DNA from: Longivirga aurantiaca
Lineage (GTDB): Bacteria; Actinomycetota; Actinomycetes; S36-B12; CAIYMF01
Direction of reading: 5' to 3'
Assembly: GCF_042660085.1 (NCBI RefSeq)
Contig: NZ_JBHSTI010000005.1
Location: 334-21,143, forward strand
Length of the DNA: 20,810 nt
The notes below the pieces were generated by a model, which was given only the letters and a program-made list of their open reading frames with translations, was not told the origin of the DNA and searched no databases. The position numbers were made by a program, and so were the translations under genes. Of this stretch, positions 2 to 13,332 are shown in pieces; position 1 is the first letter of the stretch; each line of letters opens with the position of its first letter.

Positions 2-688
2 ATCCTCAAGCATGCCGTGAAGGAGATCGCGGCCAAGCACGGCCACACTGCGAGCTTCATGGCGAAGGTCCGACCCGAGTGGGCGGGATCGTCCGGCCAT
101 GTCCACCAGAGCCTGACGACGCTCGACGGGAAGCCGGCCTTCGCCAACCCGGACGACCCCACCTCGCTCTCGGCGGTAGGCAAGTCGTATGTGGCGGGCC
201 TTCTCGAGCTCGCTCCCGCGCTGACGGCCTTCTTCCTGCCGACCGTGAACTCCTACAAGCGAACGGAAGGCGGAGCCTGGGTCGGATCCGCGGCCACGTG
301 GGGCAAGGACAATCGCACGGTGGCGATGCGAGCGATCCCGTCCGACGGGCCGCCGGCGCGCATCGAGAACCGCTTGGCCGGCGCGGACGCCAACCCCTAC
401 CTGGTGCTCGCCGCGAACATCGCCGCAGGGCTCCATGGGGTGCGGGGCCAGCTGACTCCGCCCGAGCCGCTGACGGGGAACGCCTTCGTGGCTCCCGTCG
501 AGGTAGCCCCGCCCCTGCCCAACACGCTGGCGGCGGCCACGGCGGAACTGCGCGCGTCCGAGGTGGTGCGAGGCCTCCTCGGCGAGCAGTTCGTGACGCA
601 CTACGCGGAGACGCGGGACTGGGAGATCTCGCAGTTCGCCAAGCACGTCACCGACTGGGAGACCGAGAGGTACCTCGAGATCATCTAG
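2..688 (+). CDS. Glutamine synthetase family protein, C-terminal part (5' end outside window); possibly a GlnA3/PuuA-like gamma-glutamyl-amine ligase
   Basis: The reading frame is open from the window edge (ILKHAVKEIAAKHG...). GS catalytic-domain C-terminal motifs are present (NRTVAMRAIP, ENRLAGADANPYL). Stop at 686-688. A PuuD-like hydrolase gene follows directly. Confidence 0.85.
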   Translation: MLKHAVKEIAAKHGHTASFMAKVRPEWAGSSGHVHQSLTTLDGKPAFANPDDPTSLSAVGKSYVAGLLELAPALTAFFLPTVNSYKRTEGGAWVGSAATWGKDNRTVAMRAIPSDGPPARIENRLAGADANPYLVLAANIAAGLHGVRGQLTPPEPLTGNAFVAPVEVAPPLPNTLAAATAELRASEVVRGLLGEQFVTHYAETRDWEISQFAKHVTDWETERYLEII

Positions 689-837
689 TACGCGCGTTCC
701 GCCGGAGGATCGAACGTGCCGCTCCTGGCTCTGGCCCCCATCCAGGATGCTCGACGTACCCGTCGCTCGGGCACATCGCGAGAGCGCGGCATCCCCACCC
801 TCGCCTCTCGCCGACAGCACCTCGTGAAGGGACCACC

Positions 838-1632
838 GTGGTCGTGCCGCGCTACCTGACACCTGAGGACGTCATGCCGGAGGACGAGGGGGCGCGAACC
901 GGCCCCGTGGTCAACGTGCACGTGTCACTTAACTTCCCCGAGATGACGGCCCACACCGCGGACCTCATGCGGAAGTCGATCCGCTCGGCGCTGACCGCGC
1001 TCGCTGAGCGCGACGGGGACTGGCGCCTGGTCGACACCTCGGGGGAGCTCCCGGAGCCGCGCGAGTGCCTCGGCGACGGCGTTCTGGTGCTGGGCGGCGG
1101 CGACGTCGACTCGGAGCTCTACGGCGTGCCCGGCCCGGTGCCGCACGAGTTCGGCGTGGACGAGCGTGCGGACCGGTTCACCATCGCGGTTCTGAGGGAG
1201 GCCCTGGGCGCCGAGGTGCCCGTCCTCGCCGTGTGCCGGGGCGCCCAGCTCCTCAACGTGGCGCTGGGGGGCACGCTGGTCCCGCATCTCGACGATTCTC
1301 AGCACCTGCACCGCGGGGCCAGTGCGGACGATCTCTTCGTCGACGAGCACGTGGTCGTCGAGCCGGGGACCAGGCTCGCCGAGCTGTTGGGCCACCGGGA
1401 GTGGACCGTGCGGGCGGCGCACCACCAGGCCGTCGACGTCGTCGCTCCCGAGCTGCGTCTGGCCGCGAGGTCGGTGGACGGCGTGGTGGAGGCGGTGGAG
1501 CACCCGGACAAGTGGGCCTTCGGAATCCAGTGGCACCCGGAGGACGACGACGGCCACGGCCACGACCTCGCCCTGCTCTGGGGCGCCCTGTGCCAGGAGG
1601 CGGGCCGCGCCCGCAACCTGTCGGAGCCGTGA
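838..1632 (+). CDS. Class-I glutamine amidotransferase-like hydrolase (peptidase C26, gamma-glutamyl-GABA hydrolase/PuuD family)
   Basis: Nucleophile Cys context AVCRGAQLLNVALGG, plus HHQAV and GIQWHPE motifs. The first 250 aa of track ORF 79..1632 are Arg/Pro-rich shadow sequence, so I moved the start to GTG 838, which is preceded by GAAGGGA. ATG 874 is an alternative start. Confidence 0.8.
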   Translation: MVVPRYLTPEDVMPEDEGARTGPVVNVHVSLNFPEMTAHTADLMRKSIRSALTALAERDGDWRLVDTSGELPEPRECLGDGVLVLGGGDVDSELYGVPGPVPHEFGVDERADRFTIAVLREALGAEVPVLAVCRGAQLLNVALGGTLVPHLDDSQHLHRGASADDLFVDEHVVVEPGTRLAELLGHREWTVRAAHHQAVDVVAPELRLAARSVDGVVEAVEHPDKWAFGIQWHPEDDDGHGHDLALLWGALCQEAGRARNLSEP

Positions 1633-1791
1633 GCCCGACGGCCCTCCGTCGAGCCGCCCACCCGTCGCCCAACCCAGTTGCGCAGGCCGCACGGTGATCG
1701 TGAGGGCGATCATGGCCAAGGAGCCGGGTGGGCGAGCCGACGCTGCTCGGTCGCTCGGGGGCGCCGTCCTCGGCGCTGAGGCCCCGGCGGG

Positions 1792-2172
1792 TCACGCCTC
1801 GAGGACCGCCCCCATGAGCTCCAGGGTGGCGGGCATGCCGCCGTTGCCCCGCAGGGCCTTCGCGACGTAAGGGACCGGCTCCCTGCCCGCGGGGCTTGTC
1901 GCGGTCTCGGTGGCCAGGACCGCGTCGTACGTGCTCTCGACGCACCTCGCCTCGCTCGAAGTCCCGGGTGGGCCGTCACGGCGAGGGGAAGGCTCCAACC
2001 ACTCGGTGGACACGGTCAGCACGTCGACTACGGCATCCGGCCATGTGCCAGCCGCGGCCACCGTGCCTGGCGGCCTGACCAGCACTGCAGCAGAACACTG
2101 GTCGACGTCCCTCAAGGTCGGCCAGAACAGGTCATTCAGAGGATGGACTGGGGTGTCGAGGAGACTCGTCAT
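1792..2172 (-). CDS. Hypothetical protein (126 aa)
   Basis: Intact ORF with G/C-biased third codon positions. Its ATG at 2172 lies 1 nt after the stop (2174-2176) of the upstream small ORF, suggesting a coupled pair. I recognise no family motif. Confidence 0.5.
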   Translation of the reverse strand: MTSLLDTPVHPLNDLFWPTLRDVDQCSAAVLVRPPGTVAAAGTWPDAVVDVLTVSTEWLEPSPRRDGPPGTSSEARCVESTYDAVLATETATSPAGREPVPYVAKALRGNGGMPATLELMGAVLEA

Positions 2173-2173
2173 G

Positions 2174-2386
2174 TCAACTCTTCATGAGCGGCAGCTGTTG
2201 CGAGCGTCCTCGAAGCTCTGCTGCCGCCCACCGGCCCCAACTGTCCACGAGTGCCGTCGAAACCACGACTCGATGCCATCCAGTGGCGACTTCAAGCGAC
2301 TCTTGGGTGTACTCCTGGCCGGACTTGTACGAGTCGGTCCAGACAAACAGGCGAACGAGAAGGAAGGCCGTGTCGCCACACGGCAC
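2174..2386 (-). CDS. Hypothetical small protein (about 70 aa; start uncertain, alternatives TTG 2440 or GTG 2530)
   Basis: The C-terminal two thirds (VPCGDTAFLLVRLFVWTDSYKSGQEYTQESLEVATGWHRVVV...) look protein-like, while the upstream part of the track ORF is Arg-rich junk. GTG 2386 is preceded by GAGGATACGAGAAG. The stop abuts the next ATG. The DNA here is locally more AT-rich. Confidence 0.35.
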   Translation of the reverse strand: MPCGDTAFLLVRLFVWTDSYKSGQEYTQESLEVATGWHRVVVSTALVDSWGRWAAAELRGRSQQLPLMKS

Positions 2387-2699
2387 CTTCTCGTATCCTC
2401 GAGCCCCTCCGGAAACGCCACGGTCCTCGCAACTCCTCAAATCGAGGTGTTGCGAGGACCGCGTGAACCCGTCTCGAGGTCGGGGCCGTCGTCGTTCGTC
2501 GGGCTTCCTGTCCCGCTGTTCTCGGCTCACCCGAACGAGGCCGTCGCCAGGCGATGCCGCGTGCGGAGGCCGAGCTGCGTCGGGCCCTCCACCCGGGTGC
2601 TTCCGCCTCTGCGCTCAGGAGCGGAGCGAGCCCGACGGGTCGACGTGTCGTCCCGCGGCGCTTCGGGCGCCGGCGCTGCGTCTCGGGCGTTATCATCCG

Positions 2700-2713
2700 A
2701 TCAATCGATTGAT
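2700..2713. promoter_or_regulatory. Perfect 14-bp palindrome ATCAATCGATTGAT, candidate TetR operator
   Basis: The sequence equals its own reverse complement. It lies 43-56 nt upstream of the TetR ATG (2756) in an AT-rich patch (TTATCATCCGATCAATCGATTGATTGATTGC) of an otherwise GC-rich region. Confidence 0.5.
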
Positions 2714-2755
2714 TGATTGCTGGTGAGGGGTCTGGGCGGGAGGAGGCACGGCGGG

Positions 2756-3412
2756 ATGAAGTCCGACGACGTGCTCCGGGCCGCGGTGCTGCTGTTCGCG
2801 CGACAGGGTTACGCCGCGACGGGTATCCGTGAGATCGCGCGTGAGGTCGGCCTGAACTCCGCGACGCTATACCACTACGCGAACGGCAATGAGGGGCTGC
2901 TCGTCGCCGTCATGCAGAGCTGCCTCGACGAGCTCCTCCGCTCGACCGACGAGGCCCTCCGTCACAGCGACGACCCGCAGGTGCAGCTCGGGCGGCTGAT
3001 CCGGGCCCATGTCGGGCTCTCGGCCCTCAACCCGCTGTCCTCCCGTGTGACGGATCAGGCGTTCCGTTCCTTGGGGCCTGCCAACCGCGCATCGCTGCTG
3101 GTGCTGCGGGACAGCTACGAGTCGCAGCTGGGTGCCGTGATCGATGCCGGCGCCCGAGCCGGTCTCTTCGATGTCGCCGACCCTCGGCTCACCCGGCTGG
3201 CGATCCTTGAGATGTGCAACGGCGTCGCGAACTGGTACCGCCAGGCCGGCCGCCTGCCGATGCGGGCCGTGCAGATGCAGTTCGTCGACTTTGGCTGCCG
3301 CCTCGTCGGTGCGCCGGTGATGGACGAGGCGGAGCTGGGCCCCGTGCAGACGCCGCACCTACTTCGCTGCGAGCCGTACGCCTCACCCGACACGATGGAG
3401 GACCTAGGTTGA
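2756..3412 (+). CDS. TetR/AcrR family transcriptional regulator
   Basis: N-terminal HTH signature LRAAVLLFARQGYAATGIREIAREVGLNSATLYHYA. ATG 2756 is preceded by GGGAGGAGG. The track start TTG 2717 only adds a Gly/Arg-rich leader. Confidence 0.9.
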   Translation: MKSDDVLRAAVLLFARQGYAATGIREIAREVGLNSATLYHYANGNEGLLVAVMQSCLDELLRSTDEALRHSDDPQVQLGRLIRAHVGLSALNPLSSRVTDQAFRSLGPANRASLLVLRDSYESQLGAVIDAGARAGLFDVADPRLTRLAILEMCNGVANWYRQAGRLPMRAVQMQFVDFGCRLVGAPVMDEAELGPVQTPHLLRCEPYASPDTMEDLG

Positions 3413-4290
3413 ACATCACCGATGCGCGCGTCCGACTCCCGCAGGACCGACGGACCAGTGCGAGCTACTCGGCTCCGGCCCGGCAGACGGAGCAGTACGA
3501 CCGCGTCCTCGGGCTGACCGACAAGATGAACGGCGGCACGCTGTCCGGCCTGCTGAAGGAGATGGACGCCGTCGGCATCAGCCGCGCCGTGATGCATGCC
3601 GAGTCCGAAGGGGGCGAGGACGCCGATGCGCTCAACACCGCTCTGCGCTCCGTGCTCGACGAGCACCCCGACCGGTTCTTGGGCGTGGGCTGCGTCGACG
3701 TGACCCTGTCATCGCCGACCGCGATCGCGGCGCAGGCCGCGCGCGCGCAGGACCTCGGGCTGCTGGGGGTGTCGTTCCAGCCTGCATTCTTCGGCCTCGA
3801 CATCGACGACCGCCGTCTCTACCCGCTCTACTCCAGGGCGGAGGAGATCGGCCTCGTCGTCGCCGTCCACACGGGGATCAACTACAGCCGCCTGCACCCG
3901 ATCAAGCACGAGCGCGCGGAGAACCTCGATCAGGTCGCCTGCGACTTTCCCGACCTGCGGCTCATCGCCTGCCACGCGGGCTGGCCCTGGGTGACCGAGT
4001 TCGCGGCTGTTGCGCGGCGCCATCCGACGGTCTTCCTCGAGTACGGCGCCATCGCACCCAAGTACGTCGCGAGGCCTGGCACGGGTTGGGATGTCCAGTT
4101 CGCCATGATGGCTAACGTCCTTCGGGATCAGGTGCTCTACGGGAGCGATTGGCCGATGATCAGCCCGAGCCGGGCCGTGCAGGAATGGCGGGACTCCGGT
4201 CTGCCGGACGCGGCGCTGGAGGCGCTGCTCTCGCGCAACGCCGAGCGGCTCTTCGGTCTTGAGGGCGGCGGCGTGGGACTGCCGACGTGA
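3409..4290 (+). CDS. Amidohydrolase-2 family (PF04909-like metal-dependent hydrolase/decarboxylase)
   Basis: Motifs VAVHTG, IACHAGWPW and LYGSDWPM. TTG 3409 overlaps the TetR stop (TTGA) and follows GGAGGA at a 7-nt spacing. The upstream part of track ORF 3214.. overlaps TetR in another frame and looks like shadow sequence. Confidence 0.85.
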   Translation: MNITDARVRLPQDRRTSASYSAPARQTEQYDRVLGLTDKMNGGTLSGLLKEMDAVGISRAVMHAESEGGEDADALNTALRSVLDEHPDRFLGVGCVDVTLSSPTAIAAQAARAQDLGLLGVSFQPAFFGLDIDDRRLYPLYSRAEEIGLVVAVHTGINYSRLHPIKHERAENLDQVACDFPDLRLIACHAGWPWVTEFAAVARRHPTVFLEYGAIAPKYVARPGTGWDVQFAMMANVLRDQVLYGSDWPMISPSRAVQEWRDSGLPDAALEALLSRNAERLFGLEGGGVGLPT

Positions 4291-5807
4291 CCCTGACCCT
4301 GTCCTCGCAGCTCCGTACGGCAGCGGAGGACTCCCCGGACAGGGTGTTCATCCGAACCATGGGCGAGGAGCTCACCTACGCCGAGACGTGGACCCGCGTG
4401 CGGGTGCGCGCCGGGCAGCTCCGGGAGGCCGGGATCCGGCGCGGGGACTCCGTGGCAGTCGTAATGGACAACAGCGCCGATCAGATCGTGATCTGGTTCG
4501 CCCTGAATGCACTGGGTGCCCTGCATGCAGCGCTCAACACCGCGTTCACCGACGCACGGCTGGCGCACAACCTCAGGGTCTCGAAGGCATCGTGGGTGCT
4601 GGCCGACGACCAGTACCTGGCAGACGTCCAGCGCGGCATCGGGACCCATGAGTTGCCCGCGCGTGTGATCCCCTCGAGTGCCGTCGGCTCGCTGCCGGGG
4701 GCACCGGTGGACGAGGCGGAGCAGGTCGACGACCTGGCCACGGCCACCCTTCTGTTCACCTCGGGCACCACGGGCGCGTCGAAGGCGTGCGCCCTGTCCA
4801 ACCGCTACCTGGTCCGGGCCGGCCAGCTGCACGTGACGTACCTTGGGCTGACGTCCGACGACGTCCTCTACAGCCCCTTCCCTCTCTTCCACATAGACGC
4901 GGCGACCCTCACGGTGTCGGCCGCCCTGGTGGCCCGAGCGACCGCGGCGATCGGGCTGCGGTTCAGCGCCTCACGGTTCTGGGACGAGGTGCGGGCCATG
5001 GACGCCACCGTCTTCAACTTCATGGGCGCCACGCTGACGATCCTGTGGAAGCGCGACCCCGACCCGCGCGACAGCGACCATCGGGTCCGGCTCGCCTGGG
5101 GCGTGCCGATCCCCGAGTGGAAGGCCGAGTTCGAGCACCGGTTCGGGTTCCCGCTGTTCCAGGTCTACGGGCTGACCGATGGAGGACTTCCCGCCTACGA
5201 CCCCATCGACGGCTCGCAGCGGCCGGGGTTCGCCGGGCGCGTGATCCCCGAGTACGAGGTGCGCATCGACACCGCCGCGCGACGGCACGGCGACCCCGAG
5301 GGCGTGGGCGAGATCCTCATGCGCTCCCGGGAGCCGGGTCTGATGATGAACGGGTACTTCGGGGACCCCGCAGCGACCGAGAAGGCGATCGTGGACGGGT
5401 GGCTGCGTACGGGCGACCTCGGGCTGCTCGATGGTGACGGCTATCTGGCCTTCCACGGTCGTCTGACGGACTCTATCCGCCGTCGAGGCGAGAACATCTC
5501 CGCCTTCGAGGTCGAAGAGCTCGTCGGATCCCACCCGGACGTGGTCGAGGTCGCCGCGGTCGGTGTGCCCAGCGACCTGACCGAGGAGGACGTGCAGGTG
5601 TGGGTCGTTGCGCGCCAGGGCAGCGGACTCACGGCCGAGACCCTCCACCGCGATCTGGCCGAACGTGGTCCCCGCTACCTCGTTCCCCGCTACTACGCGT
5701 TCGTTCCGGCCCTCCCGAAGACGCCGACGGAGAAGGTGGAGAAGTTCGAGCTGCGGTCGGCGGGCACGAGCACGTCGTGGGACTCCGAGGCCACCAGCGG
5801 CGACTAG
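4287..5807 (+). CDS. AMP-dependent synthetase/ligase (acyl-CoA synthetase, CaiC-like)
   Basis: AMP-binding motif LLFTSGTTGASKA, and GDLG..DGDGYLAFHGRLTDSIRRRGENIS. GTG 4287 overlaps the amidohydrolase stop (GTGA). Confidence 0.9.
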   Translation: MTLTLSSQLRTAAEDSPDRVFIRTMGEELTYAETWTRVRVRAGQLREAGIRRGDSVAVVMDNSADQIVIWFALNALGALHAALNTAFTDARLAHNLRVSKASWVLADDQYLADVQRGIGTHELPARVIPSSAVGSLPGAPVDEAEQVDDLATATLLFTSGTTGASKACALSNRYLVRAGQLHVTYLGLTSDDVLYSPFPLFHIDAATLTVSAALVARATAAIGLRFSASRFWDEVRAMDATVFNFMGATLTILWKRDPDPRDSDHRVRLAWGVPIPEWKAEFEHRFGFPLFQVYGLTDGGLPAYDPIDGSQRPGFAGRVIPEYEVRIDTAARRHGDPEGVGEILMRSREPGLMMNGYFGDPAATEKAIVDGWLRTGDLGLLDGDGYLAFHGRLTDSIRRRGENISAFEVEELVGSHPDVVEVAAVGVPSDLTEEDVQVWVVARQGSGLTAETLHRDLAERGPRYLVPRYYAFVPALPKTPTEKVEKFELRSAGTSTSWDSEATSGD

Positions 5808-5938
5808 CCTCGATCTTTCGCGCGGGGTCTGATCTGGTGGCGTGACACGGGTCTTGAAAGCACGGAAGTGCCTGTCCTGGTTGGGAAACTACTGATTGTC
5901 AAGGTCAGCAAGTTCCCAGCGAGGAAGGCACTCCGTAG

Positions 5939-6229
5939 GTGAAGAATAGCCGCCGGGTCGTCCCGGTCATCATGGACCCGTCGAACGAGTCGCTGATCTC
6001 CTCCGCGGGTGGGTCGCTGTTGCTGGCCACAGCTCGGGCGACCGGCCTGGATCGGGCGCTGTCAGCGGGGTTGGCTCCGTGGCGGGTACCGCGGGCGGTC
6101 CACGACCCGGGCAAGGTGATCCTTGATCTCGCGGTCGCGTTGGCCCTGGGCGGGGACTGTCTCGCGGATGTCGCGGCCCTGCGTGCCCAGCCGACACTCT
6201 TCGGTGCGGTCGCCTCGGATCCGACGGTG
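5939..6229 (+). pseudogene. IS1380-family transposase, N-terminal ~97 codons only (truncated remnant)
   Basis: SLISSAGGSLLLATARATGLDRALSAGLAPWRVPRAVHDPGKVILDLAVALALGGDCLADVAALRAQPTLFGAVASDPTV matches my recollection of the conserved N-terminus of actinobacterial IS1380-type transposases. The similarity stops near 6229 and no DDE domain follows in any frame. Confidence 0.6.
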
Positions 6230-6620
6230 TTGAACCACCCTGGGTTGCTTGGAGGCTCCATCAAACCCAGGGAGGTTCACCGAGGCCGGTCCGACGGCCC
6301 TGGGACCGGTGGCGAAGGACGCCACGTGCATCGAGACACTGCGCGCAAGCCCATCCCTGTCCCCCGCGGCATCAGGTTCTGGTGACGGGCTCGAAGCCAC
6401 GACCCCGGTCACGCGCCCGGCACCGCCAATCACATGCCCACCCGCGTCCTGCACGCCGCCACCGACCAATACCCAGGAGCGTCAGCCGTTCGCCCGCGCG
6501 TGGACCGCGTGGGCTCCCCTTGGGCTAAGCCATGGCCACAAGGGGCCAAACAAGGCCAGCAGAGGGCAAGAGGCTGTTGGGTGAAATTCCCGGAACCCCT
6601 ACAGGACATGGAATCTGTGG

Positions 6621-6663
6621 GGAGCGGGTGACGGGAATCGAACCCGCACTGTCAGCTTGGGAA
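6621..6663 (-). other. 3' fragment of tRNA-Gly(CCC), anticodon loop to acceptor end; att-type remnant, not a functional tRNA
   Basis: The minus-strand sequence reads TTCCCAA GCTGA CAGT GCGGG TTCGATT CCCGT CACCCGC T CC. This gives an anticodon loop with CCC, a 4-nt variable loop, a T-arm, an acceptor 3' strand and the Gly-typical U73 discriminator. The sequence 5' of the loop (GCAAG) cannot pair with GCTGA, and there is no D-arm or 5' acceptor strand. Confidence 0.65.
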
Positions 6664-6685
6664 CTTGCCGGCCTTAGTTCCCAAG

Positions 6686-7660
6686 CTACCCGTTGCTCGC
6701 CGAAGCGATGGCCTCGACGAGGTGGCTGAGGTCTTGGTCGATAGCGGTAACTTGAGCGGTAACGGCGGCAGTAATTGCTGCATCGGTGGCGAGAGCAAGA
6801 CGACCGCGAACCCAAGAGAGGAACTTCCGTGCGGCGCCACCGTCGGGGCGGGCCGACTGCAGGTCGGCCTCGGCGGCGGCCACGAGCTGCTGCCCCTCTT
6901 CTGAGTCACCCGCCAGCTCGAAGCGGCCAAGGATCTTGACCAGGCCACTCATCGCCAAGACGAGTTGCTCACTGGTCACGTCCACGTTCATGACCTGTCG
7001 CGCGTTGTCGCCCGTTGCCACCTGCACCTGTTGGCCGCTGACGTTCCAGGTGATTTGCTGCAACGTCACTGCTTCCCGCGAGCTCACGTACGCGTCGGGG
7101 TCCGAGTCGTACTGCTCCACGCAGACTAGGCCAGCGTCGGTGAGCCGCGGTCGAATAGGCCCGTTGTTGCCGTTCGAGCGCGGACCGTCTATCAACTGCG
7201 TTCGTGCAAGCCACCCTGCCGCACGATCCGATTCTTCGACGGTGAACGGATCTCCGTAGAAGCGGGATAGCCTGCTAAGGCTCCAATCACCCCAGTTCGC
7301 GAACTGCCCGCTTTCCTCCGTGGCGTCCGATTCTGCAAGCCATCGGAGGATGCCGCGTCGGACGGCAGCGCGGCGGCCGAGGACGTCACTGCGTTGTAGG
7401 TGGCGGCGAGTCACGGCGGAACGACCCTCCGGCGTGACCTCTGCAGCCATTCCTGGTAGCCCACCCATCCCGCTGTGGTCACGGATCAAGCCTGCCGCAG
7501 TCAGGCGTGACACGTCCTGATACGCGATACGCGTGTTTTCGGGGTCATTGTCGTAGAAGCCTGCGAGGTATGGGATTCCCTCAGCCTGCTCCACCATCCA
7601 CTCCAGCAGGCGGTGGCCACGCTCAGCGTCGGGGTCGGTATCGACCCAAGGGAAAGTCAT
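6686..7660 (-). CDS. Hypothetical protein (324 aa) with two winged-helix-like repeats and an Ala-rich helical C-terminus
   Basis: Start moved to ATG 7660 (MTFPWVDTDPD...) because the upstream 50 codons of the track ORF are Arg/Cys-rich junk. There is no SD, but TATGAT sits at -12..-7 relative to the ATG, which fits a leaderless mRNA. Internal repeat: LLEWMVEQAEG..AAGLIRD..VTPEGRSAV versus ILRWLAESDAT..GWLARTQLIDG..LTDAGLVCVE. Confidence 0.7.
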   Translation of the reverse strand: MTFPWVDTDPDAERGHRLLEWMVEQAEGIPYLAGFYDNDPENTRIAYQDVSRLTAAGLIRDHSGMGGLPGMAAEVTPEGRSAVTRRHLQRSDVLGRRAAVRRGILRWLAESDATEESGQFANWGDWSLSRLSRFYGDPFTVEESDRAAGWLARTQLIDGPRSNGNNGPIRPRLTDAGLVCVEQYDSDPDAYVSSREAVTLQQITWNVSGQQVQVATGDNARQVMNVDVTSEQLVLAMSGLVKILGRFELAGDSEEGQQLVAAAEADLQSARPDGGAARKFLSWVRGRLALATDAAITAAVTAQVTAIDQDLSHLVEAIASASNG

Positions 7661-7939
7661 GCGCCGATCATATTGAGGTTCCCGCAGCTGCCCGAGGCTT
7701 GAGAATGGCGTTGTGACACCGCTACGGCGGCGCTTGTCGTGGCCTCGACGGCGGCAGCGCAGAACAGCGACCATGTACCGGCGGTCTCGTTCTTCGCACA
7801 GGGTCGTCATTTCGGAGTTGAGAGTGGCCGGTCTCGTTGCCGGCGGGATAGACCGGCGGCATAGAGAGGACGCCGCTTCCCGAGCGACACGTCGAGCGCA
7901 GAGCCACCGCCGTCGGACCCACCCGTCAGAATCATTCGT

Positions 7940-8623
7940 ATGCCTGACTCCTGGGTCGCGTTATTGATCGCACTGTTGGCTGTCGTACCCGGCTTTCTGA
8001 CAGTGACCATTTGGGCTAGGTCGCGGACATGGCGGGGTCCGACTGGTGACCTTCGGACCATCCTTCAAGCACTGGCAATTAGCGCCGTGATCCAGGTGGT
8101 GCTGTTCCCGCTCACTGTCATGGTCGTGTTGCCGCATTGGCGCTCGCCGGATGACTACGCCGTCTCACTTGGGGCATGGCTCCTCCTTACGGTTCTCGCG
8201 TTCCCAGTGGTGTTGGGTCTTGGGACGGCGCGGTTGACCGACTGGGTCTTTCCACTCAGGACGGCCGATACGAACTTCGGCTGGCTCCGACGATTCCTAC
8301 GCGGCGCGATCAAGCCGGTCGCGCCTCCGACGATGTGGGATTGGTGGCTCACCGAAGGTGTCCCGAATGGGCGATTCGTCCTTGCCAAGTTCCGTGATGG
8401 CTCGTATATCGGTGGCGTCTTCTCAGATGGTTCTATGGCGCTGACATCCCCGGAGCCGCACGGCATCTATCTGGCGAGTGAGTGGCTTGTGGATGAGGCA
8501 GGGGACTTCGTGGGCGAGATTCCGCAAACTGGCGGTGTGCTGCTGCCGCTCCGAGAAGACATACTGTGGCTACGGGTTCAAGGCGATAACGGGACGTCAG
8601 AGGTTGGTGACGATCGTGCCTAG
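7940..8623 (+). CDS. Membrane protein with 3 N-terminal TM helices and a C-terminal soluble domain; DUF6338-like (from memory)
   Basis: TM segments WVALLIALLAVVPGFLTVTIW, ILQALAISAVIQVVLFPLTVMVVL and LGAWLLLTVLAFPVVLGLGTA. The C-terminal part is PTMWDWWL..GRFVLAKFRDGSYIGGVF..PEPHGIYLASEWLVDEAGDFVGEIP. Transcribed divergently from 6686..7660. Confidence 0.75.
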   Translation: MPDSWVALLIALLAVVPGFLTVTIWARSRTWRGPTGDLRTILQALAISAVIQVVLFPLTVMVVLPHWRSPDDYAVSLGAWLLLTVLAFPVVLGLGTARLTDWVFPLRTADTNFGWLRRFLRGAIKPVAPPTMWDWWLTEGVPNGRFVLAKFRDGSYIGGVFSDGSMALTSPEPHGIYLASEWLVDEAGDFVGEIPQTGGVLLPLREDILWLRVQGDNGTSEVGDDRA

Positions 8624-8735
8624 TCAGAAGGCGCTGCCGGCGGCGCAGGAGACAAAGGGTCAAGCGCCAGGGTCAGGCAAGGTGCCCTCGACGCCGCCAC
8701 CTCCGAAGCCCAGTGCGACGAGGCGAGGAGCGTGA
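8616..8735 (+). CDS. Mini-ORF 1 (39 aa) VPSQKALPAAQETKGQAPGSGKVPSTPPPPKPSATRRGA
   Basis: GTG 8616 overlaps the stop of 7940..8623 by 8 nt (GTGCCTAG). It shares the G-x-VP-x-x-PPPPK core with the next two mini-ORFs, even though the DNA has diverged. Confidence 0.35.
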   Translation: MPSQKALPAAQETKGQAPGSGKVPSTPPPPKPSATRRGA

Positions 8736-8741
8736 CAGTCG

Positions 8742-8855
8742 ATGGCTGACGATCAGGGGCAGAGAGGCTCGGTCCTCGGCAATGGTCGGGTTCCGAAGAC
8801 CCCGCCTCCTCCCAAGGCAACGCCTCCCAGCAAGCCAAGCGGTAGCAAGTCCTAA
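8742..8855 (+). CDS. Mini-ORF 2 (37 aa) MADDQGQRGSVLGNGRVPKTPPPPKATPPSKPSGSKS
   Basis: ATG 8742 has AGGAG 11 nt upstream. It is in the same frame as mini-ORF 1, separated only by TGA plus two codons. It carries the conserved core GRVPKTPPPPK. Confidence 0.35.
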   Translation: MADDQGQRGSVLGNGRVPKTPPPPKATPPSKPSGSKS

Positions 8856-8874
8856 CGTCGGCGGAAGCGGACCA

Positions 8875-8991
8875 GTGGGAAAGAAGGTGACGGGAGGCGC
8901 CGTCACTGGCAAGGGCGGCGTGCCCAGCAATCCGCCCCCGAAGGCGGGCGACAAGGGAGCTGGGTCCAGGAAGCCGCCGCACGGGGCTTAG
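8875..8991 (+). CDS. Mini-ORF 3 (38 aa; alternative GTG 8887) VGKKVTGGAVTGKGGVPSNPPPKAGDKGAGSRKPPHGA
   Basis: Third copy of the core (GGVPSNPPPK), in a different frame from copies 1 and 2. It forms the C-terminal part of track ORF 8713..8991, whose N-terminal part is Arg-rich shadow sequence. It overlaps the antisense tail of the integrase ORF. Confidence 0.3.
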   Translation: MGKKVTGGAVTGKGGVPSNPPPKAGDKGAGSRKPPHGA

Positions 8992-10525
8992 CCAAAGCAG
9001 GACGGGCCGCGATCCTGGTCACTCGTCCCCGTCTCGTCCCCCAGCAACGATCATGGGTTGACACGAGAGGGCCCATTGGCGCTCGCATCGGGCTGTTCTG
9101 GTACATCCGCGCAAGCGTGACGCCTGCCTGCGACGCCCTCGTAATGCGTAGGTCATCGGTTCGATTCCGATAGGCGGCTCCATCTTCAAGTCTCTGACCT
9201 GCGGCGATGCTGTCGGGGTCACCCTCGGGATCGTCGTCTGAGGGCGAGTTGCTCACATGTTGCTCACGGACTCGCTGGGATGCGTCGTCTGCGCGCGGCA
9301 CGAGGGACCACGCCTTGGCAGCTGCTTCGCTTCCGACGCCGGGCAGCAGGTGGGTGTAGGTGTCCGAGGTGATGGCCACGGAGGAGTGTCCGAGCCGCTT
9401 GCTGACCACGACGATGTCGACGCCGGCGGCGAGCATGAGCGAGGCCTGGCCGTGGCGCAGGTCGTGCAGTCGGATGCGTCGTAGCCCGATCTCTTCGGCG
9501 AGTTCCTGGAAGCGGTCGGAGAGCCGGTCGGGGTGCAGGGGTACGCCGTCGGGCCGGGGGAACACGAGGTCGTGGTCGTTGTAGGCGTCGCCGAGCGGCG
9601 CGCGGGCGGCGTCCTGGCGCAGGCGGTGGGCGAGCAGCACGCCGACCGTGTGCGGGTCGAGGTCGACGACGCGGTCCTCTCCGCTGGCGGTCTTCGGTCG
9701 CCCGAATGCGATGCGCCCGTGGTCGGCGCCGCACTGCGCGCACGGGCGGGAGAAGCGCGCGGTGAGGGTGACGACCTGCTGGCGTACGTGGAGCCGGTTG
9801 CGTTCGAGGTCGACGTCGGACCAGCGCAGCCCGGCCGCCTCTCCGCGGCGTAGACCGGTGGCGGCCAGGAGCTGGAACGCGGGCCCGAGCGGGTCGTGGT
9901 CGGCGTGGTCGAGGAACCGGCCGAGCTCCTCGGGCTCCCACGGGCGCACGCGCGGACGCGGCACCGACGGCAGGTCGATGTTCGCGGCCGGGTTCGTGGG
10001 GATCAGGCGCGACTTCACCGCCGAGCCCAGCGCCGAGCGGAGCGAGGCGTGCACGCGGCGCAGGGTGGCTGGCTTCATCTGACGGTCGGCCTGGATGGAG
10101 CGCAGGGCGCTCTCGACGTCGTGGGGGCTCAGGTCGCGCAGGCGCACGTGCCCGATGCGGGGGATGAAGTACTGATGCACGTGCGCGGTGTACGTCGCGG
10201 CGGTGGTGGGCCGGACGCCGTCGGCGACCTTGCCGGCCAGCCAGTCGAGCAGGAACTGCCCGACGGTGATGCTGTTGACCGCGACGCCGACGCCGCGGGA
10301 GCCGGCGTCGATCACCTCGGCGAGCGCCTTCTCCGCGTCCTTCTTGGTCGCGAACCCGAACCGGGTGAGCTGACGGCGCGCGACGTGCTCGCCGTCCGGG
10401 TTCGGTCCCGGCCCGAGGTCGACGGTGTAGCCCCAGGACCCGTGCTTCTCGGAGCAGGCCTTGCGCCGGCCGCGTGAGTCGAAGACGGCGGGGCACTGGC
10501 AGCGCTTGCGAACGGTTCCGCGCAT
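8903..10525 (-). CDS. int: Tyrosine recombinase / phage-type integrase (ORF runs to the first stop; the last ~130 codons cross the tRNA-Thr fragment and look non-native)
   Basis: N-terminal Cys/His arm-type domain (KRCQCP...CSEKHGSWGYTVDLG). Catalytic residues in context: GLRRGEAAGLRW, HDLRHGQASL, LGHSSVAITSDTYTHL. ATG 10525 is preceded by GAGGGAGGA. Confidence 0.9.
   Translation of the reverse strand: MRGTVRKRCQCPAVFDSRGRRKACSEKHGSWGYTVDLGPGPNPDGEHVARRQLTRFGFATKKDAEKALAEVIDAGSRGVGVAVNSITVGQFLLDWLAGKVADGVRPTTAATYTAHVHQYFIPRIGHVRLRDLSPHDVESALRSIQADRQMKPATLRRVHASLRSALGSAVKSRLIPTNPAANIDLPSVPRPRVRPWEPEELGRFLDHADHDPLGPAFQLLAATGLRRGEAAGLRWSDVDLERNRLHVRQQVVTLTARFSRPCAQCGADHGRIAFGRPKTASGEDRVVDLDPHTVGVLLAHRLRQDAARAPLGDAYNDHDLVFPRPDGVPLHPDRLSDRFQELAEEIGLRRIRLHDLRHGQASLMLAAGVDIVVVSKRLGHSSVAITSDTYTHLLPGVGSEAAAKAWSLVPRADDASQRVREQHVSNSPSDDDPEGDPDSIAAGQRLEDGAAYRNRTDDLRITRASQAGVTLARMYQNSPMRAPMGPLVSTHDRCWGTRRGRVTRIAARPALAKPRAAASWTQLPCRPPSGADCWARRPCQ
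9138..9182 (+). other. 3' fragment of tRNA-Thr(CGT), anticodon loop to CCA; att-type core next to the integrase gene
   Basis: The plus strand reads CTCGTAA TGCGT AGGTC ATCGG TTCGATT CCGAT AGGCGGC T CCA. Upstream there is no GCCGCCT acceptor 5' strand and no D-arm, and the 5' anticodon-stem strand ACGCC pairs at only 4 of 5 positions. Confidence 0.6.
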
Positions 10526-10547: not shown

Positions 10548-10811
10548 CTACTGCGATACCGGACCGGCGACGGTTGCGCCAGCGCTGGGCGGTGAGCCTG
10601 CGGACGACACGCCGGCGCTGTCCGAGTCGTCGACGAGGCGTAGCAACGCAGCGGTGGGGATCCGGATGAGCTTGCCGACGCGCAGGACCGTGGTGGGCCA
10701 CAGGTCGGCTTTGACGAGCTCGTAGGCCAGGGTGCGTCCGATGCCCAGCACGCGCGCGGCTGTGGGCAGGTCGACCAGGGGTGGGAGCTGCTCTATCTCG
10801 GTGCGGTTCAC
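10548..10811 (-). CDS. xis: Excisionase-family helix-turn-helix DNA-binding protein
   Basis: LVDLPTAARVLGIGRTLAYELVKADLWPTTVLRVGKLIRIPTAALLRLV is the typical MerR-like excisionase HTH. GTG 10811 is preceded by AGGAGA at a 5-nt spacing. It ends 22 nt upstream of int. Confidence 0.8.
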   Translation of the reverse strand: MNRTEIEQLPPLVDLPTAARVLGIGRTLAYELVKADLWPTTVLRVGKLIRIPTAALLRLVDDSDSAGVSSAGSPPSAGATVAGPVSQ

Positions 10812-10942
10812 GGGGATCTCCTGACTGTCCGTTGCCCCGCGGCAGCGGTGGCACGACAAGGTGCGCACCGAAGGGCACCGACACGCGTCGGACGCAGACG
10901 GCTGCGTCGCCAGCTGCGTTACCTGGCGGTGTCGGTTGCTGG

Positions 10943-11168
10943 GACTCCGTCACGCGACTCCGCCGCCGCCGCGCTGACTGTCATGGACTCCGTCACCGAC
11001 TCCGTCACGGACTCCGTCACCGGGTGGGGGCCGTCCTCCGACTCCGTCACGGCGCTGACGGCGGTGCCAGCGCTGTCACGGAGTCCGTCATTGACTCCGT
11101 TACGGCGCCGAGGTTGGTGCCCGGGCTGTCGTGGAGTCCGTCACCGACTCCGTCACCGACTCCGTCAC
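10943..11168 (+). repeat. Iteron array: 11-bp motif GACTCCGTCAC, 7 perfect and 3 one-mismatch copies, all in one orientation
   Basis: Perfect copies start at 10943, 10986, 10998, 11010, 11040, 11146 and 11158. One-mismatch variants start at 11081 (GAGTCCGTCAT), 11093 (GACTCCGTTAC) and 11134 (GAGTCCGTCAC). A degenerate copy lies at 10956. Two triplets (10986/10998/11010 and 11134/11146/11158) and one pair (11081/11093) are in 12-bp phase. Confidence 0.9.
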
Positions 11169-11338
11169 GTGTCACTGGGCTCCCTCACGTTGAAGGCCCC
11201 GACCCCAGCCCCCGGCATCGAGGACGCGCCTCCCTGGTCCGGCGAGCCCTTCAGCACGGCGTGTCGTCCACAGCCGGTGGTGCGGCGCTGACGCCGGGCT
11301 TCTTCGCCAACTGTGACCCTGGCTAGCTGGAGGTGAGG

Positions 11339-11701
11339 ATGGTCGACGTCGACGATGGGGGAAGCCGCGCGCGGGCGGCGCTGGAGTGCGCGTTGGTGGG
11401 CCTTCTGGCCGATCTGCGCCAGCACTGGCGCGACCACGCCGTGTCCCTCGGTGTCATCGGCGCCACAGAGCGTATGAGCGCGATCCTGCGCGCTCCGAGC
11501 TCGGGGAAGGTAGGCCACGGCGCGCTCTCCGGCGGGCCGGCCGAGCGCTTGGTGTCGGCGCGTGCCGCGGTGGTCTTCCTCGTCGACAACGCCGAAGCCT
11601 TGGACCTGTCAGCTGAACTGCTCCTGCTGCTTGCCCGGGCGGCGCACGCGCTCTCGGCGGCCGAACGTGTGCTGCTCCCCGGCTCCTGGGAAGCACGCTG
11701 A
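11339..11701 (+). CDS. Hypothetical protein (120 aa), predicted helical
   Basis: ATG 11339 is preceded by GGAGGTGAGG. Third codon positions are strongly G/C-biased throughout. I recognise no motif. It is divergent from xis-int across the iteron region. Confidence 0.55.
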
Positions 11702-11774
11702 CGGACGTACGACGACCCCGCCGGAATGAGGGGTATCCAGATGCCAGCGCGTGCGGTGGTTCAGGTCTTGCTCG

Positions 11775-11785
11775 TGACGGAGTCG
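11775..11785 (-). repeat. Isolated inverted copy of the iteron (GTGACGGAGTC)
   Basis: It is the exact reverse complement of GACTCCGTCAC and lies 74 nt downstream of the 11339..11701 ORF, so that gene sits between the direct array and one inverted copy. Confidence 0.55.
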
Positions 11786-12219
11786 CCGACCGTCGCTGTC
11801 AGCGTCGCGGCTGGGTTCCTGTCGCCGGCATGGTGCACCGCGACCGCGCGGGGTCAGCTGACGATCCGGGTTCGTGTCGTGCCGGGTTGTCACATCACGT
11901 GCTGCCTGGTTCGGGCGCGAAAGTGCCTGTTGTGAATGCGGAATCGGATGATGACGGCCGTCCGCTCCTTGGAGCCAGAGGAGTGGCTGGCGGTGACGGG
12001 ATCGACGCGTCAGCCGATCGGCGCTGCGCGTTGTTGGTCGGGGAGACTCGGTACCTCGTCGTCGACGCGACTGAGCCTCAACGACTCACCGGGACAACGC
12101 CGCGTCCGGCGTTCGGGCTGCTCACCAGCCGCTCGGGTGCACGAGCCGTATGGCGTCATCGCCCGCTGACCGCCGGGCTCAAAGGGAGCGAGGTACACCC
12201 GGTCAGTAGCGTCAACGCC

Positions 12220-13332
12220 ATGTCTGCCGACCACCTTGCCGACCTGTCCGCCGCCGGAGTCTCGATCTGGCTCGACGACCTCGACCGCAGCCGCCTGTCG
12301 GGCGGCGGTCTGGCCGCCCTCGTCGCGGGGTCGCACGTCGTCGGTGTGACGACGAACCCGTCCATCTTCGAGAAGGCGATCGTCTCGGGCGCCGCGGCGT
12401 ACGCCGACCAAGTGCACGACCTCGCGATCCGCGGCGTCGACCTGGGCGAGGCGGTGCGGGCGATGACGACGTACGACGTGCGCTGGGCCTGCGACGTTCT
12501 GGCACCGGTGTACGAGCACTCGGGCGGTGTCGACGGCCGGGTGAGCATCGAGGTCGACCCGCGGCTGTCCGCCGACACCGAGGCCACGGTGGCCGAGGCC
12601 AAGGCGCTGCACTGGTCGGTCGACCGTCCCAACCTGCTGGTGAAGATCCCCGCCACCATCGAGGGCCTGCCCGCCATCACCGAGGTGCTCGCGGCCGGCA
12701 TCAGCGTCAACATCACGCTGATCTTCTCGGTCGAGCGCTATCGGGGTGTGCTGGACGCCTGGCTCGCCGGGCTGGAGAAGGCGCAGGCCAACGGCCACGA
12801 CCTCGCGACCATCGAGTCGGTGGCGTCGTTCTTCGTCAGCCGCGTCGACTCCGAGGTCGACAAGCGCCTCGGACCCGACTCCCCGCTGTGCGGCACCGCC
12901 GCCATCGCCAACGCGCGCATCGCGCACGAGGCGTTCGCCCAGGTGATCGCCTCGGACCGGTGGACGGCGCTGGCCGCGGCCGGGGCGCACGTGCAGCGAC
13001 CGCTGTGGGCCTCGACCGGGGTCAAGGACCCGGCGTACTCCGACACCCGCTACGTCATCGACCTCGTCACCGCCGACACCGTCAACACGATGCCCGAGGC
13101 GACCCTGGACGCCGTGCGCGACCACGGCGCGGTGCAGGGCGACACCGTGGTGCCCGAGTACGCCGCGGCCCACGCCGCGCTCGACGCGCTGACCGCCGCC
13201 GGGATCGACCTCGACGACGTCTTGCAGGTGCTCGAGGACGAGGGCGTCGACAAGTTCGTCCAGTCGTGGAACCAGCTCCTCGAGGCCGTCACCACCGCGC
13301 TCGCCGAGGCGCGCGCGGCTGCAGGGCGCTGA
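12220..13332 (+). CDS. tal: Transaldolase
   Basis: [33 protein letters not shown] and LLVKIPAT (active-site Lys context). At 370 aa it matches actinobacterial Tal length. The track ORF start at 11830 is an unsupported N-terminal extension. Confidence 0.92.

Follow-up and report, generated by a model that had tools for sequence, protein, structure and literature searches.

Organisation of the locus

The DNA analysed here, referred to as the window, is a stretch of 20,810 nucleotides of Longivirga aurantiaca (Actinomycetota, Sporichthyaceae; contig NZ_JBHSTI010000005.1, positions 334 to 21,143) and represents nearly the entire 21-kb contig. An accessory stretch of about 6 kb separates two housekeeping flanks. 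It contains a gene for a soluble tandem winged-helix protein, here called gene (i), and, in divergent orientation, a gene encoding a membrane protein of the DUF6338 family, followed by three tiny open reading frames (ORFs) for basic, proline-rich mini-proteins. An earlier note on this DNA had joined all of these genes into a single candidate defence module lying between two att-like tRNA fragments. The analysis points to a different arrangement: the segment at 6.6–9.2 kb is a mosaic of two element ends, not one module. The best overall explanation, with a probability of roughly 0.6, is that the DUF6338 gene and its mini-proteins form a mobile operon with a proposed role in genetic conflict, and that gene (i) is a separate cargo. 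The features on which this reading is built are the following.

6621–6662, minus strand: 3'-terminal 42 nt of a tRNA-Gly(CCC), beginning in the anticodon loop and including the acceptor end; an att-type remnant
6686–7660, minus strand: gene (i), encoding a soluble protein of 324 aa in which a linker joins two winged-helix domains to a C-terminal four-helix bundle
7661–7939, between the divergent genes: intergenic region of 279 bp, the probable junction of two unrelated element remnants
7940–8623, plus strand: DUF6338 membrane protein, 227 aa (Pfam PF19865)
8616–8735, plus strand: mini-protein 1, 39 aa, containing GSGKVPSTPPPPK, with a GTG start
8742–8855, plus strand: mini-protein 2, 37 aa, containing GNGRVPKTPPPPK, with an AGGAG-like ribosome-binding site upstream
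8875–8991, plus strand: mini-protein 3, 38 aa, containing GKGGVPSNPPPK, with a GTG start at 8875
9130–9185, plus strand: 3' 56 nt of a tRNA-Thr(CGT), an att core that also closes the island of the closest relative (L001, described below), straight after its DUF6338 cassette
9264–10525, minus strand: tyrosine integrase (Pfam Phage_integrase, Phage_int_M, Arm-DNA-bind_4 and SAM_3)

From left to right, the accessory stretch comprises a fragment of an IS1380-family transposase, the tRNA-Gly fragment (minus strand), gene (i) (minus), the DUF6338 gene with its three mini-ORFs (plus), the tRNA-Thr fragment (plus), the integrase gene with a gene for a helix-turn-helix (HTH) protein (minus), and a set of 12-nt repeats. 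The cargo had been described as more AT-rich than its surroundings, and both GC content and the GC content of third codon positions (GC3) agree. The GC content is 0.61–0.65 over positions 6500–8750 against about 0.69–0.75 in the flanks. GC3 reaches 0.72 in gene (i) and 0.68 in the DUF6338 gene, with a range of 0.66–0.79 for the cargo and of 0.90–0.96 for the host genes. The integrase gene (0.92) is host-like in this respect, and the excisionase-like HTH gene has a value of 0.86. This gap between the recombination genes and the cargo indicates that they differ in origin or in residence time.

The DUF6338 operon and its mini-proteins

Sequence comparison, together with the detection of counterparts of the peptides in Pseudomonas stutzeri (see below), makes it very likely that the DUF6338 gene and the mini-protein genes constitute a real, conserved operon with translated peptides. 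The membrane protein matches PF19865 with 100 bits (cut-off 26.5; E 1.8e-28) over profile positions 1–193 of 205, so the DUF6338 pattern suggested in the earlier note was correct. The three small basic Pro-rich ORFs that it had placed behind this gene are also present, with the start of the third adjusted to GTG 8875, which is likelier than 8878 because the latter is not a start codon. The mini-ORFs begin at −8, +119 and +252 nt from the DUF6338 stop codon. The GTG start of mini-protein 1 overlaps this stop codon by the 8 nt originally reported, and through this overlap mini-protein 1 would be translationally coupled to DUF6338. The three mini-proteins have net charges of +5, +4 and +6, respectively, contain 16–23% Pro and carry PPPPK or PPPK. 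None of them has a match in Pfam, PHROGs or NCBIfam.

The mini-proteins of the actinobacterial subfamily have [KR]-G-x-x-x-G-[RK]-G-x-[AV]-P-x-x-P-P-(P)-P as a common motif. The strict form of this motif was found 46 times within the 900 nt that follow DUF6338 genes and 11 times in the remaining 1.05 Mb of strand sequence, so that it is enriched 84-fold behind DUF6338; it is present in 23 of the 60 loci with room downstream. Furthermore, a Gly at position −9 (upstream of the anchor Pro and absent from the search pattern) is found in 22 of the 25 distinct occurrences of the motif. At least 14 further loci have a basic Pro-rich ORF of looser form that begins between −31 and +18 nt of the DUF6338 stop codon. 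Most DUF6338 loci contain one to three small same-strand ORFs downstream, which often overlap and encode basic, disordered peptides, and the net charge of the mini-proteins across homologous loci ranges from +1 to +7.

The closest DUF6338 protein, with 80% identity, is encoded by a metagenomic contig (L001) that holds a complete 5.3-kb tRNA-Thr island. All three mini-ORFs have orthologues there, in the same order. The comparison of the window with L001 gives 12 synonymous and 12 non-synonymous codon differences for mini-protein 1 (17 of 32 base differences at position 3), 13 and 11 for mini-protein 2 (19 of 33) and 14 and 6 for mini-protein 3 (20 of 27). These figures bear on the alternative that the mini-ORFs are not genes at all, weighed further below.

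The arrangement extends to Gammaproteobacteria. In an Acinetobacter soli plasmid, the DUF6338 gene is followed by three ORFs ending in ...QPPKKP, ...SPPKKP and ...SPPRKP, and in the Klebsiella phage-plasmid pJN2-26 by one ORF ending in ...SPPPKKP. The gammaproteobacterial mini-proteins (L031, 4553–5045; L028, 4569–4700) all end with PP[KR]KP directly before the stop codon and hold G-Y-Q-P repeats. A C-terminal Pro ahead of the stop codon is known to slow termination.

An operon of the same layout, DUF6338 plus three basic Pro-rich small ORFs on the same strand, has been described once before, as 'operon 9' of Pseudomonas stutzeri (Anal Chem 2023, PMC10433244). Three new Pro-rich peptides of 36, 47 and 41 aa, encoded right after the DUF6338 gene Pstu14405_RS12030, were sequenced by mass spectrometry (MS) in that study. 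Two of them end in ...APPPPKK and ...PPPPPKKGG, and cell extracts contained the peptides in essentially full-length form (coverage of up to 100%). The authors regarded the peptides as not conserved beyond P. stutzeri and proposed no function for them; they also noted that DUF6338 occurs in biosynthetic clusters (PMC10433244). The P. stutzeri operon differs from that of the window in its gammaproteobacterial host, its 194-aa DUF6338 protein (compared by description) and its peptides, which lack the actinobacterial G-x-G-x-V-P head. Nevertheless, the window, L001, Acinetobacter and Klebsiella operons all have the traits of the P. stutzeri type, namely a DUF6338 gene followed, at a distance of some tens of nt at most, by one or more same-strand ORFs of fewer than 60 aa that are basic, Pro-rich and carry PPP(P)K. 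The operon thus belongs to a type glimpsed once before and not to a named system, and the 2023 proteogenomics finding in a single species is extended: wide conservation across Actinomycetota, Chloroflexota and Gammaproteobacteria is seen for the arrangement, but not for the sequences of the peptides in detail. Annotation pipelines systematically overlook these conserved mini-protein genes after DUF6338.

A probable junction between two element ends

The L001 island provides a complete counterpart of the right-hand part of the segment. It contains, in order, an intact tRNA-Thr(CGT) gene, a DNA methyltransferase gene, a 358-aa ORF and recombinase fragments, an integrase gene, the DUF6338 gene, the three mini-ORFs and a 49-nt copy of the tRNA-Thr 3' end. 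The window and L001 align at the DNA level with 70.6% identity over 7912–8943 and over the att core, and nowhere else. Homology therefore begins at 7912, just 28 bp 5' of the DUF6338 ATG, and in L001 an integrase gene occupies the place of gene (i). With a tRNA-targeting island of this kind the window shares the cassette, its position right at the 3' core of tRNA-Thr(CGT) and the presence of a tyrosine integrase gene in the vicinity. It differs from the L001 island in having no intact tRNA, no second core and a different, host-like integrase on the other side of the core; the two integrases are only 34% identical over 209 aa with the window protein as query (26% in the reciprocal comparison).

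The two att-like tRNA fragments reported earlier are both real and the cargo does lie between them, but they do not match each other: each comes from a different tRNA, and their strands are opposite. The tRNA-Gly fragment shows 97.6% identity with the 3' part of a tRNA-Gly(ccc) gene that ARAGORN called in Nonomuraea, and the stop codon of gene (i) is 24 nt away from it. The tRNA-Thr fragment is 98% identical both to the L001 tRNA-Thr gene and to the attR-type copy of L001, and it lies about 140 nt from the stop codon of mini-ORF 3. Its score with the Rfam tRNA model (23.8 bits) is below the gathering score, and its 5' half is not tRNA-like. Each of the fragments looks like the displaced 3' copy found at the far end of a tRNA-integrated element, and their 3' ends point outward. 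Neither core recurs in the window, and an intact tRNA is absent. Taken together, the different tRNAs, the opposite strands, the missing second copies and the lack of an intact tRNA mean that the fragments cannot be attL and attR of one element. A single integrative element bounded by attL and attR was consequently rejected, with Gly(CCC) on the minus strand at the left and Thr(CGT) on the plus strand at the right. The most economical account is that deletion or recombination within 7661–7911 joined a tRNA-Gly element to a tRNA-Thr element, or what remained of the two.

The co-occurrence of gene (i) and DUF6338 elsewhere provides independent information. Loci with DUF6338 were gathered from genomes, metagenomes, exact look-ups, plasmids and phages, and loci of the gene-(i) family from look-ups and a Streptomyces plasmid. 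Hidden Markov models (HMMs) of both families were run over the six frames of 82 fetched loci and the window; many of the locus contigs are short, and several span 6–8 kb on each side. DUF6338 was found in 70 loci and the gene-(i) family in 13 (8 of them independent, besides the window), with both present in the window only. Co-occurrence is thus 0 of 69 in the other DUF6338 loci and 0 of 8 in the other gene-(i) loci. The earlier note had itself named a lack of co-conservation elsewhere as grounds for abandoning its proposal, and the pair fails for this reason. The end of the L001 homology 28 bp 5' of DUF6338 and the position of the two genes against att fragments of different tRNAs are also opposed to it. 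It is highly probable that gene (i) and DUF6338 are not a dedicated pair, and that their adjacency is a chance junction between the leftovers of two mobile elements. A false lead is thereby removed, since the two-gene unit of sensor and membrane effector is not a conserved one, although the membrane protein with its PPPPK mini-ORFs holds up as integrase-linked cargo that is conserved across loci. A promoter and terminator scan gave nothing usable, and no sigma-70-type promoter was recognised in 7661–7939.

The integrase at 9264–10525 is a tyrosine recombinase of the phage integrase family, with PF00589 at 83 bits (cut-off 27.1; E 3e-23), PF22022, PF14657 and PF14659 also above their cut-offs, and PHROG_1 at E 1e-78. 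Together with the excisionase-like protein, it is probably part of a further decayed element or of a tandem insertion. This separate origin is proposed on the grounds of the host-like composition of both genes and of their position, where an intact tRNA would be expected. The integrase ORF lacks a stop codon near its expected end (about 20–40 aa past the catalytic Tyr region) and stays open to 8903, giving 540 aa. Its read-through crosses the tRNA-Thr core and runs antisense into mini-ORF 3, which fits a junction at the att core that is not native. A similar geometry of integrase, core and cassette was observed in L014 (1769–3820), where a plus-strand integrase gene is followed by a truncated 3' fragment, tRNA-Pro-like and in opposite orientation, and then by DUF6338, with another tRNA and another integrase.

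The DUF6338 membrane protein

The AlphaFold2 (AF2) model of DUF6338, with a predicted local distance difference test (pLDDT) score of 76, has three transmembrane helices, two short helices and a beta-rich soluble domain, in agreement with the three helices plus soluble domain predicted from the sequence in the earlier note. The transmembrane helices span residues 5–28, 38–66 and 74–103, and the beta domain residues 130–214 or so. The protein is predicted to be N-out and C-in, with a cytoplasmic soluble domain; judging by the charged residues and the positive-inside rule, the W-A-R-x-R-T-W-K-G-P loop, which is conserved, would be cytoplasmic, and so would the C-terminal domain.

The beta domain consists of a helix followed by a strongly bent five-stranded barrel (model pLDDT of about 75–88 there). 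Foldseek matches it to Sm/LSm/Hfq-like barrels with a probability of 0.95–1.0 and a TM-score of 0.5–0.6, at E-values of only 0.01–0.1. As modelled, the domain would share with the Sm/LSm/Hfq rings the helix and the bent five-stranded barrel, and it lacks their RNA-binding motifs. A ring-forming fold carried on three transmembrane helices suggests, at the level of the model, an oligomeric membrane assembly. MscS channels have three transmembrane helices plus a Sm-like beta-domain, a layout that the DUF6338 model may resemble; no Pfam MS_channel hit was obtained for DUF6338. Its beta domain has a net charge of −7, with a mean of −6.5 over 24 homologues, and these contain 7–11 aromatic residues per 86 aa of the domain. 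W133, D134 and E181 are invariant and W182 is nearly so.

The family is uncharacterised. As far as the searches show, neither the PF19865 entry nor the literature records partner peptides, a fold or a genomic context for it, and no functional information on DUF6338 was found in the literature on PF19865 and on the partners of UG32 reverse transcriptases. The absence of an enzymatic motif and of any named system, remarked on at the outset from the sequence, is in line with the HMM scans against Pfam, PADLOC, PHROGs and NCBIfam. Among viruses, a scan of IMG/VR gave no confirmed relative, the phage collection contained one DUF6338 phage-plasmid and BFVD one uncharacterised phage protein. With the mini-proteins as an obligate-looking partner, the fold hypothesis of three transmembrane helices and a Sm-like barrel, and the proposed binding of polyproline tails by the barrel, DUF6338 acquires a first working description.

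Genomic settings of the DUF6338 cassette

The operon recurs in Actinomycetota, Chloroflexota and Pseudomonadota (Gammaproteobacteria), on islands, plasmids and one phage-plasmid. Its distribution is patchy and strain-specific, and its composition is foreign. An integrase gene stands directly beside the cassette at island ends in the window, L001 and L014. Another cassette is found near genes for RepA and a TrwC relaxase on a plasmid-like contig, and a further one near ArdC.

Several cassettes lie next to genes of known conflict systems. In L010 (7274–9796), the cassette lies inside a type I restriction–modification (R-M) locus, with hsdR on one side and hsdS/hsdM on the other. It is located directly downstream of a UG32 reverse transcriptase (RT) of the defence-associated (DRT) type in L017 (6048–9320; PADLOC E 2.6e-142), straight after an AriA/OLD/GajA-like ATPase in L018 (6347–8790) and straight after an E1-JAB fusion protein in L031 (2623–5045). 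Other cassettes are at most two genes away from a type IV Mrr enzyme and from a type III enzyme with its methylase, and one is beside a Schlafen/AlbA_2 (SLFN_AlbA_2) protein. Overall, known defence genes were adjacent or at most two genes away in L010, L012, L017, L018, L025 and L031, in what is a small and unsystematic sample. This association of the cassette with conflict loci is suggestive, and DUF6338 might be an effector or accessory shared by several different defence systems.

In this respect, DUF6338 resembles the SLATT-type effectors found beside UG/Abi reverse transcriptases (PMC9226505), small proteins with two or three transmembrane helices that neighbour defence sensors and enzymes, as DUF6338 does after the UG32 RT and the OLD/AriA-like ATPase. 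There is no sequence or HMM relationship between the two, and the analogy concerns their way of working only. To our knowledge, a Sm-like cytoplasmic barrel with dedicated polyproline peptides has no counterpart in SLATT-type systems or in membrane toxin–antidote systems.

The gene (i) family

Gene (i) was predicted in the earlier note as a 324-aa protein at 6686–7660 on the minus strand, and the NCBI annotation has an identical 324-aa product. A longer ORF of 374 aa from 7810 is unnecessary, because the homologues align from the same Met. The AF2 model (pLDDT 91) comprises two winged-helix units (residues 10–200, approximately), a linker and a C-terminal four-helix bundle, the last helix of which is rich in Ala, Thr and Val and corresponds to the Ala-rich helical tail expected earlier. 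The two winged-helix segments, thought to be internally similar, are alike in fold; BLASTP between the two halves finds no similarity, so that an internal duplication recognisable in the sequence was discarded.

The linker is the best-conserved stretch of the family, with the consensus N-x-S-G-x-x-V-Q-V-A-x-G-D-x-x-x-Q. In gene (i), the conserved segment ITWNVSGQQVQVATGDNARQ (residues 201–229) is modelled as disordered (pLDDT <50), and N206, V207, V212, Q213, A215, G217, D218 and Q222 are invariant among close relatives. Like the RHIM/BASS3 motifs (bioRxiv 10.1101/2020.01.06.895854), it is rich in Q, V, N and G, conserved and built around a phi-Q-phi core. Those motifs are terminal, read G-phi-Q-phi-G and match an adjacent NLR, whereas gene (i) has V-Q-V-A-T-G in an internal position at 201–229. 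With its deviating signature, its internal location and no NLR in the window, the linker was not accepted as an amyloid motif of the RHIM/BASS3 kind and is kept as a lead only.

A word-indexed search returned only gene (i) itself and a profile search only four hits, which initially suggested an orphan. This view was overturned by exhaustive HMMER searching, which retrieved 460 cluster representatives at E≤1e-3, mostly of 305–325 aa and with a best identity of 54%. On this basis, gene (i) is assigned to an uncharacterised actinobacterial family. It has no match in Pfam (above cut-off), PADLOC (E≤0.1), PHROGs or NCBIfam, the best Pfam score being that of the DUF2582 winged-helix family (14 bits against a cut-off of 24.2). 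Foldseek against the PDB gives only local winged-helix matches to MarR/PadR proteins (probability up to 1.0), weak matches to the tandem winged-helix proteins SarS, MukE and ScpB, and no whole-protein match with E <0.01. Sequence searches of solved structures yielded only compositional helical-bundle matches and weak MarR matches. MarR/PadR proteins are dimeric with a single winged helix, in contrast to the tandem winged helix, linker and helical bundle of gene (i); this architecture, together with the local nature of the similarity and the lack of a family HMM above cut-off, led to the rejection of gene (i) as a MarR/PadR regulator.

In some relatives of gene (i), the bundle is exchanged for a CHAT protease, a Ser/Thr kinase or pentapeptide repeats (P0048, P0074 and P0082). 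P0048 and P0074 share both the head and the linker with gene (i), and P0082 matches only to residue 195. A constant head with an exchangeable tail is typical of conflict or signalling proteins, and these tail swaps suggest, from sequence alignment, a modular sensor–effector family. The contexts of the homologues, taken from exact look-ups and from plasmid tblastn, include neighbours such as an HExxH protein, a SLFN (Schlafen-type) helicase, an integrase with PIN_3 and HTH genes, and a transposase, as well as a Streptomyces plasmid and ORFan-dense regions. Gene (i) would thus be an unrelated single-gene cargo with a nucleic-acid-binding head, a conserved flexible linker and an exchangeable C-terminal module. 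Its family, with a winged-helix head and swappable CHAT, kinase or bundle tails, represents a second and independent conflict-type candidate.

Proposed role of the operon and alternative explanations

A defence or exclusion role for DUF6338 and its mini-proteins is plausible from their genomic context. That the operon serves conflict between elements or with phages is given slightly less than an even chance. Sm-type and SH3-type barrels form rings and bind extended ligands, and polyproline with a basic residue is a classic ligand of aromatic, acidic grooves. In the proposed mechanism, DUF6338 would be a small inner-membrane protein, N-out and C-in, whose cytoplasmic Sm/SH3-like barrel, acidic and rich in aromatic residues, forms oligomers and binds the mini-proteins by their polyproline-plus-lysine tails. 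The binding of the mini-proteins to the Sm-like domain, which relies on the structural model, is a tentative proposal that is rather unlikely to hold as it stands. The co-translated mini-proteins would regulate a membrane-acting effector, for instance as a labile antidote or as a trigger, with which the mobile element would exclude phages or plasmids, abort infection or secure its own retention. A more ambitious version envisages a cross-phylum mobile defence or exclusion family in which disordered peptides gate a ring-forming three-helix effector, and the loss of the peptides during phage takeover opens the effector and aborts infection; the PPPP runs would tie mini-protein synthesis to translation capacity. 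This version is speculative and improbable. With a length of about 1.1 kb, the cassette is in any case a compact candidate for defence-system screens.

A number of observations weigh against the combined reading of an element-end mosaic with a conflict operon. The integrase sits 3' of the truncated tRNA-Thr core. Gene (i) and the cassette have similar GC3 values and share their divergent intergenic region, so that one may regulate the other locally. The Sm-fold E-values are weak (0.01–0.1) and the DUF6338 model is of moderate confidence (pLDDT 76). DUF6338 has no match in PADLOC-DB v2 at E≤0.1 and none in PHROGs or NCBIfam. The defence association was counted on the limited sample mentioned above, and several cassettes have housekeeping genes as neighbours (L027 and the P0010 contig). 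Finally, the P. stutzeri peptides are constitutive and well expressed in both growth conditions, which fits a physiological role equally well (PMC10433244).

The alternatives differ in which of these observations they can accommodate. The original model of a single three-part module, with gene (i) as sensor or regulator of DUF6338 and the mini-ORFs, would account for the 279 bp shared by the divergent genes and for their similar foreign composition (GC3 0.72 and 0.68); the modelled winged helices could bind an operator there, and both families are found on mobile DNA. It is nonetheless very unlikely, in view of the lack of any co-occurrence in the 69 and 8 other loci, the replacement of gene (i) by an integrase where the L001 homology ends, and the different tRNAs behind the att fragments that the two genes adjoin. 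A physiological membrane module, that is, a channel, transporter or stress device regulated by the peptides and mobile but without a role in conflict, is an unlikely explanation that still deserves attention. The copies among housekeeping genes are in its favour, as are the expression of the P. stutzeri peptides in both conditions and the occurrence of DUF6338 in biosynthetic clusters (PMC10433244), the absence of a defence HMM match and a weak match of DUF6338 to Pfam SBF (bile-acid symporter; E 0.003, under the cut-off). Such a device is harder to reconcile with the patchy, strain-specific distribution, the foreign composition and the element-end positions by att sites, with the copies on plasmids and a phage-plasmid, and with those that repeatedly lie by or inside R-M, RT, OLD-like ATPase and E1-JAB genes.

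The two remaining proposals concern the nature of the mini-ORFs. They could encode precursors of exported or modified peptides, such as ribosomally synthesised and post-translationally modified peptides, bacteriocin-like peptides or signals, with DUF6338 as exporter or immunity protein. Such a system would show small paralogous ORFs in tandem, with a core that is conserved and flanks that vary, as is the case here; Pro-rich peptides can be antimicrobial, an idea raised in the P. stutzeri study, and the presence of DUF6338 in biosynthetic clusters comes from the same source (PMC10433244). On the other hand, neither a signal nor a leader-cleavage motif is seen in the mini-proteins, the cassette is not accompanied by a gene for a modifying enzyme or an ABC exporter that is conserved between loci, the upstream neighbour differing at almost every locus, and the P. 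stutzeri peptides were recovered essentially full length from cell extracts; little credence is therefore given to this explanation. Alternatively, the mini-ORFs might be repeated DNA, for example integrase arm-type sites between the cargo and the att core, given that three similar repeats of about 30 nt occur within 120–560 bp of this core and that the adjacent integrases carry an arm-binding domain. Substitutions between the window and L001 are biased to position 3 and rich in synonymous changes, and the peptide motif is kept with different codons at loci that have neither an att site nor an integrase. This substitution pattern and the conservation away from att sites, to which the MS evidence for the P. 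stutzeri counterparts can be added, rule out arm sites, the likelihood of which is practically negligible. A mosaic of two element ends, with the DUF6338 operon and gene (i) as independent cargoes, hence remains the preferred interpretation of the segment.

Edges of the accessory region

Two further genes belong to the accessory stretch.

5939–6385, plus strand: N-terminal fragment of an IS1380-family DDE transposase, about 100 aa matched, at the left edge of the accessory region
10548–10868, minus strand: excisionase-like HTH_17 protein, upstream of the integrase gene, with weak HMM matches

On the left, the housekeeping flank (79–5807) encodes a GATase/peptidase C26 protein, a TetR regulator, an amidohydrolase and an acyl-CoA synthetase. 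Just 3' of the acyl-CoA synthetase gene, a weak small-RNA match to Ms_IGR-7 was observed at 5834–5935 on the minus strand (24.5 bits against a gathering score of 45; E 0.09). The transposase fragment that follows matches Pfam DDE_Tnp_1_4 (E 8e-12) over profile positions 18–103 of 435, and NCBIfam transpos_IS1380 with E 1e-14, far under the cut-off since the match is truncated. This fragment is bracketed by an 18-nt inverted repeat (5901–5918 and 6658–6675, 89% complementary), the right arm of which overlaps the anticodon-stem part of the tRNA-Gly fragment and a hairpin after gene (i). The repeat may be due to chance or be a remnant of insertion-sequence ends. A 29-nt imperfect direct repeat at 5860 and 11915 was considered as an island boundary and dismissed, as a repeat of 72% identity seeded by a 10-mer is no more than chance would give in 6.5 kb.

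On the right, the excisionase-like protein matches Pfam HTH_17 (E 3e-4, under the cut-off) and TIGR01764 excise (E 0.009). It also gave a weak match to PADLOC mad1, the only PADLOC match obtained. The housekeeping flank resumes from about 12.3 kb with genes for a transaldolase, a luciferase-like monooxygenase and a branched-chain amino-acid ABC transporter. The 'transaldolase' ORF is 500 aa long and begins with an extension of 145 aa (11830–12264) that has atypical codons, its GC3 being 0.69 against 0.96 in the TAL domain. The true start of the gene is probably near 12265, which leaves about 1.4 kb (10870–12265) of accessory DNA without assigned genes. In this DNA, just upstream of the excisionase-like gene, two clusters of the 12-nt tandem repeat GACTCCGTCACC/G, with around nine copies in total, extend over 10959–11180. 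Because they contain stop codons in most frames, the repeats look like DNA-level iterons, such as an array for Xis, Int or a replication protein, and not like coding sequence.

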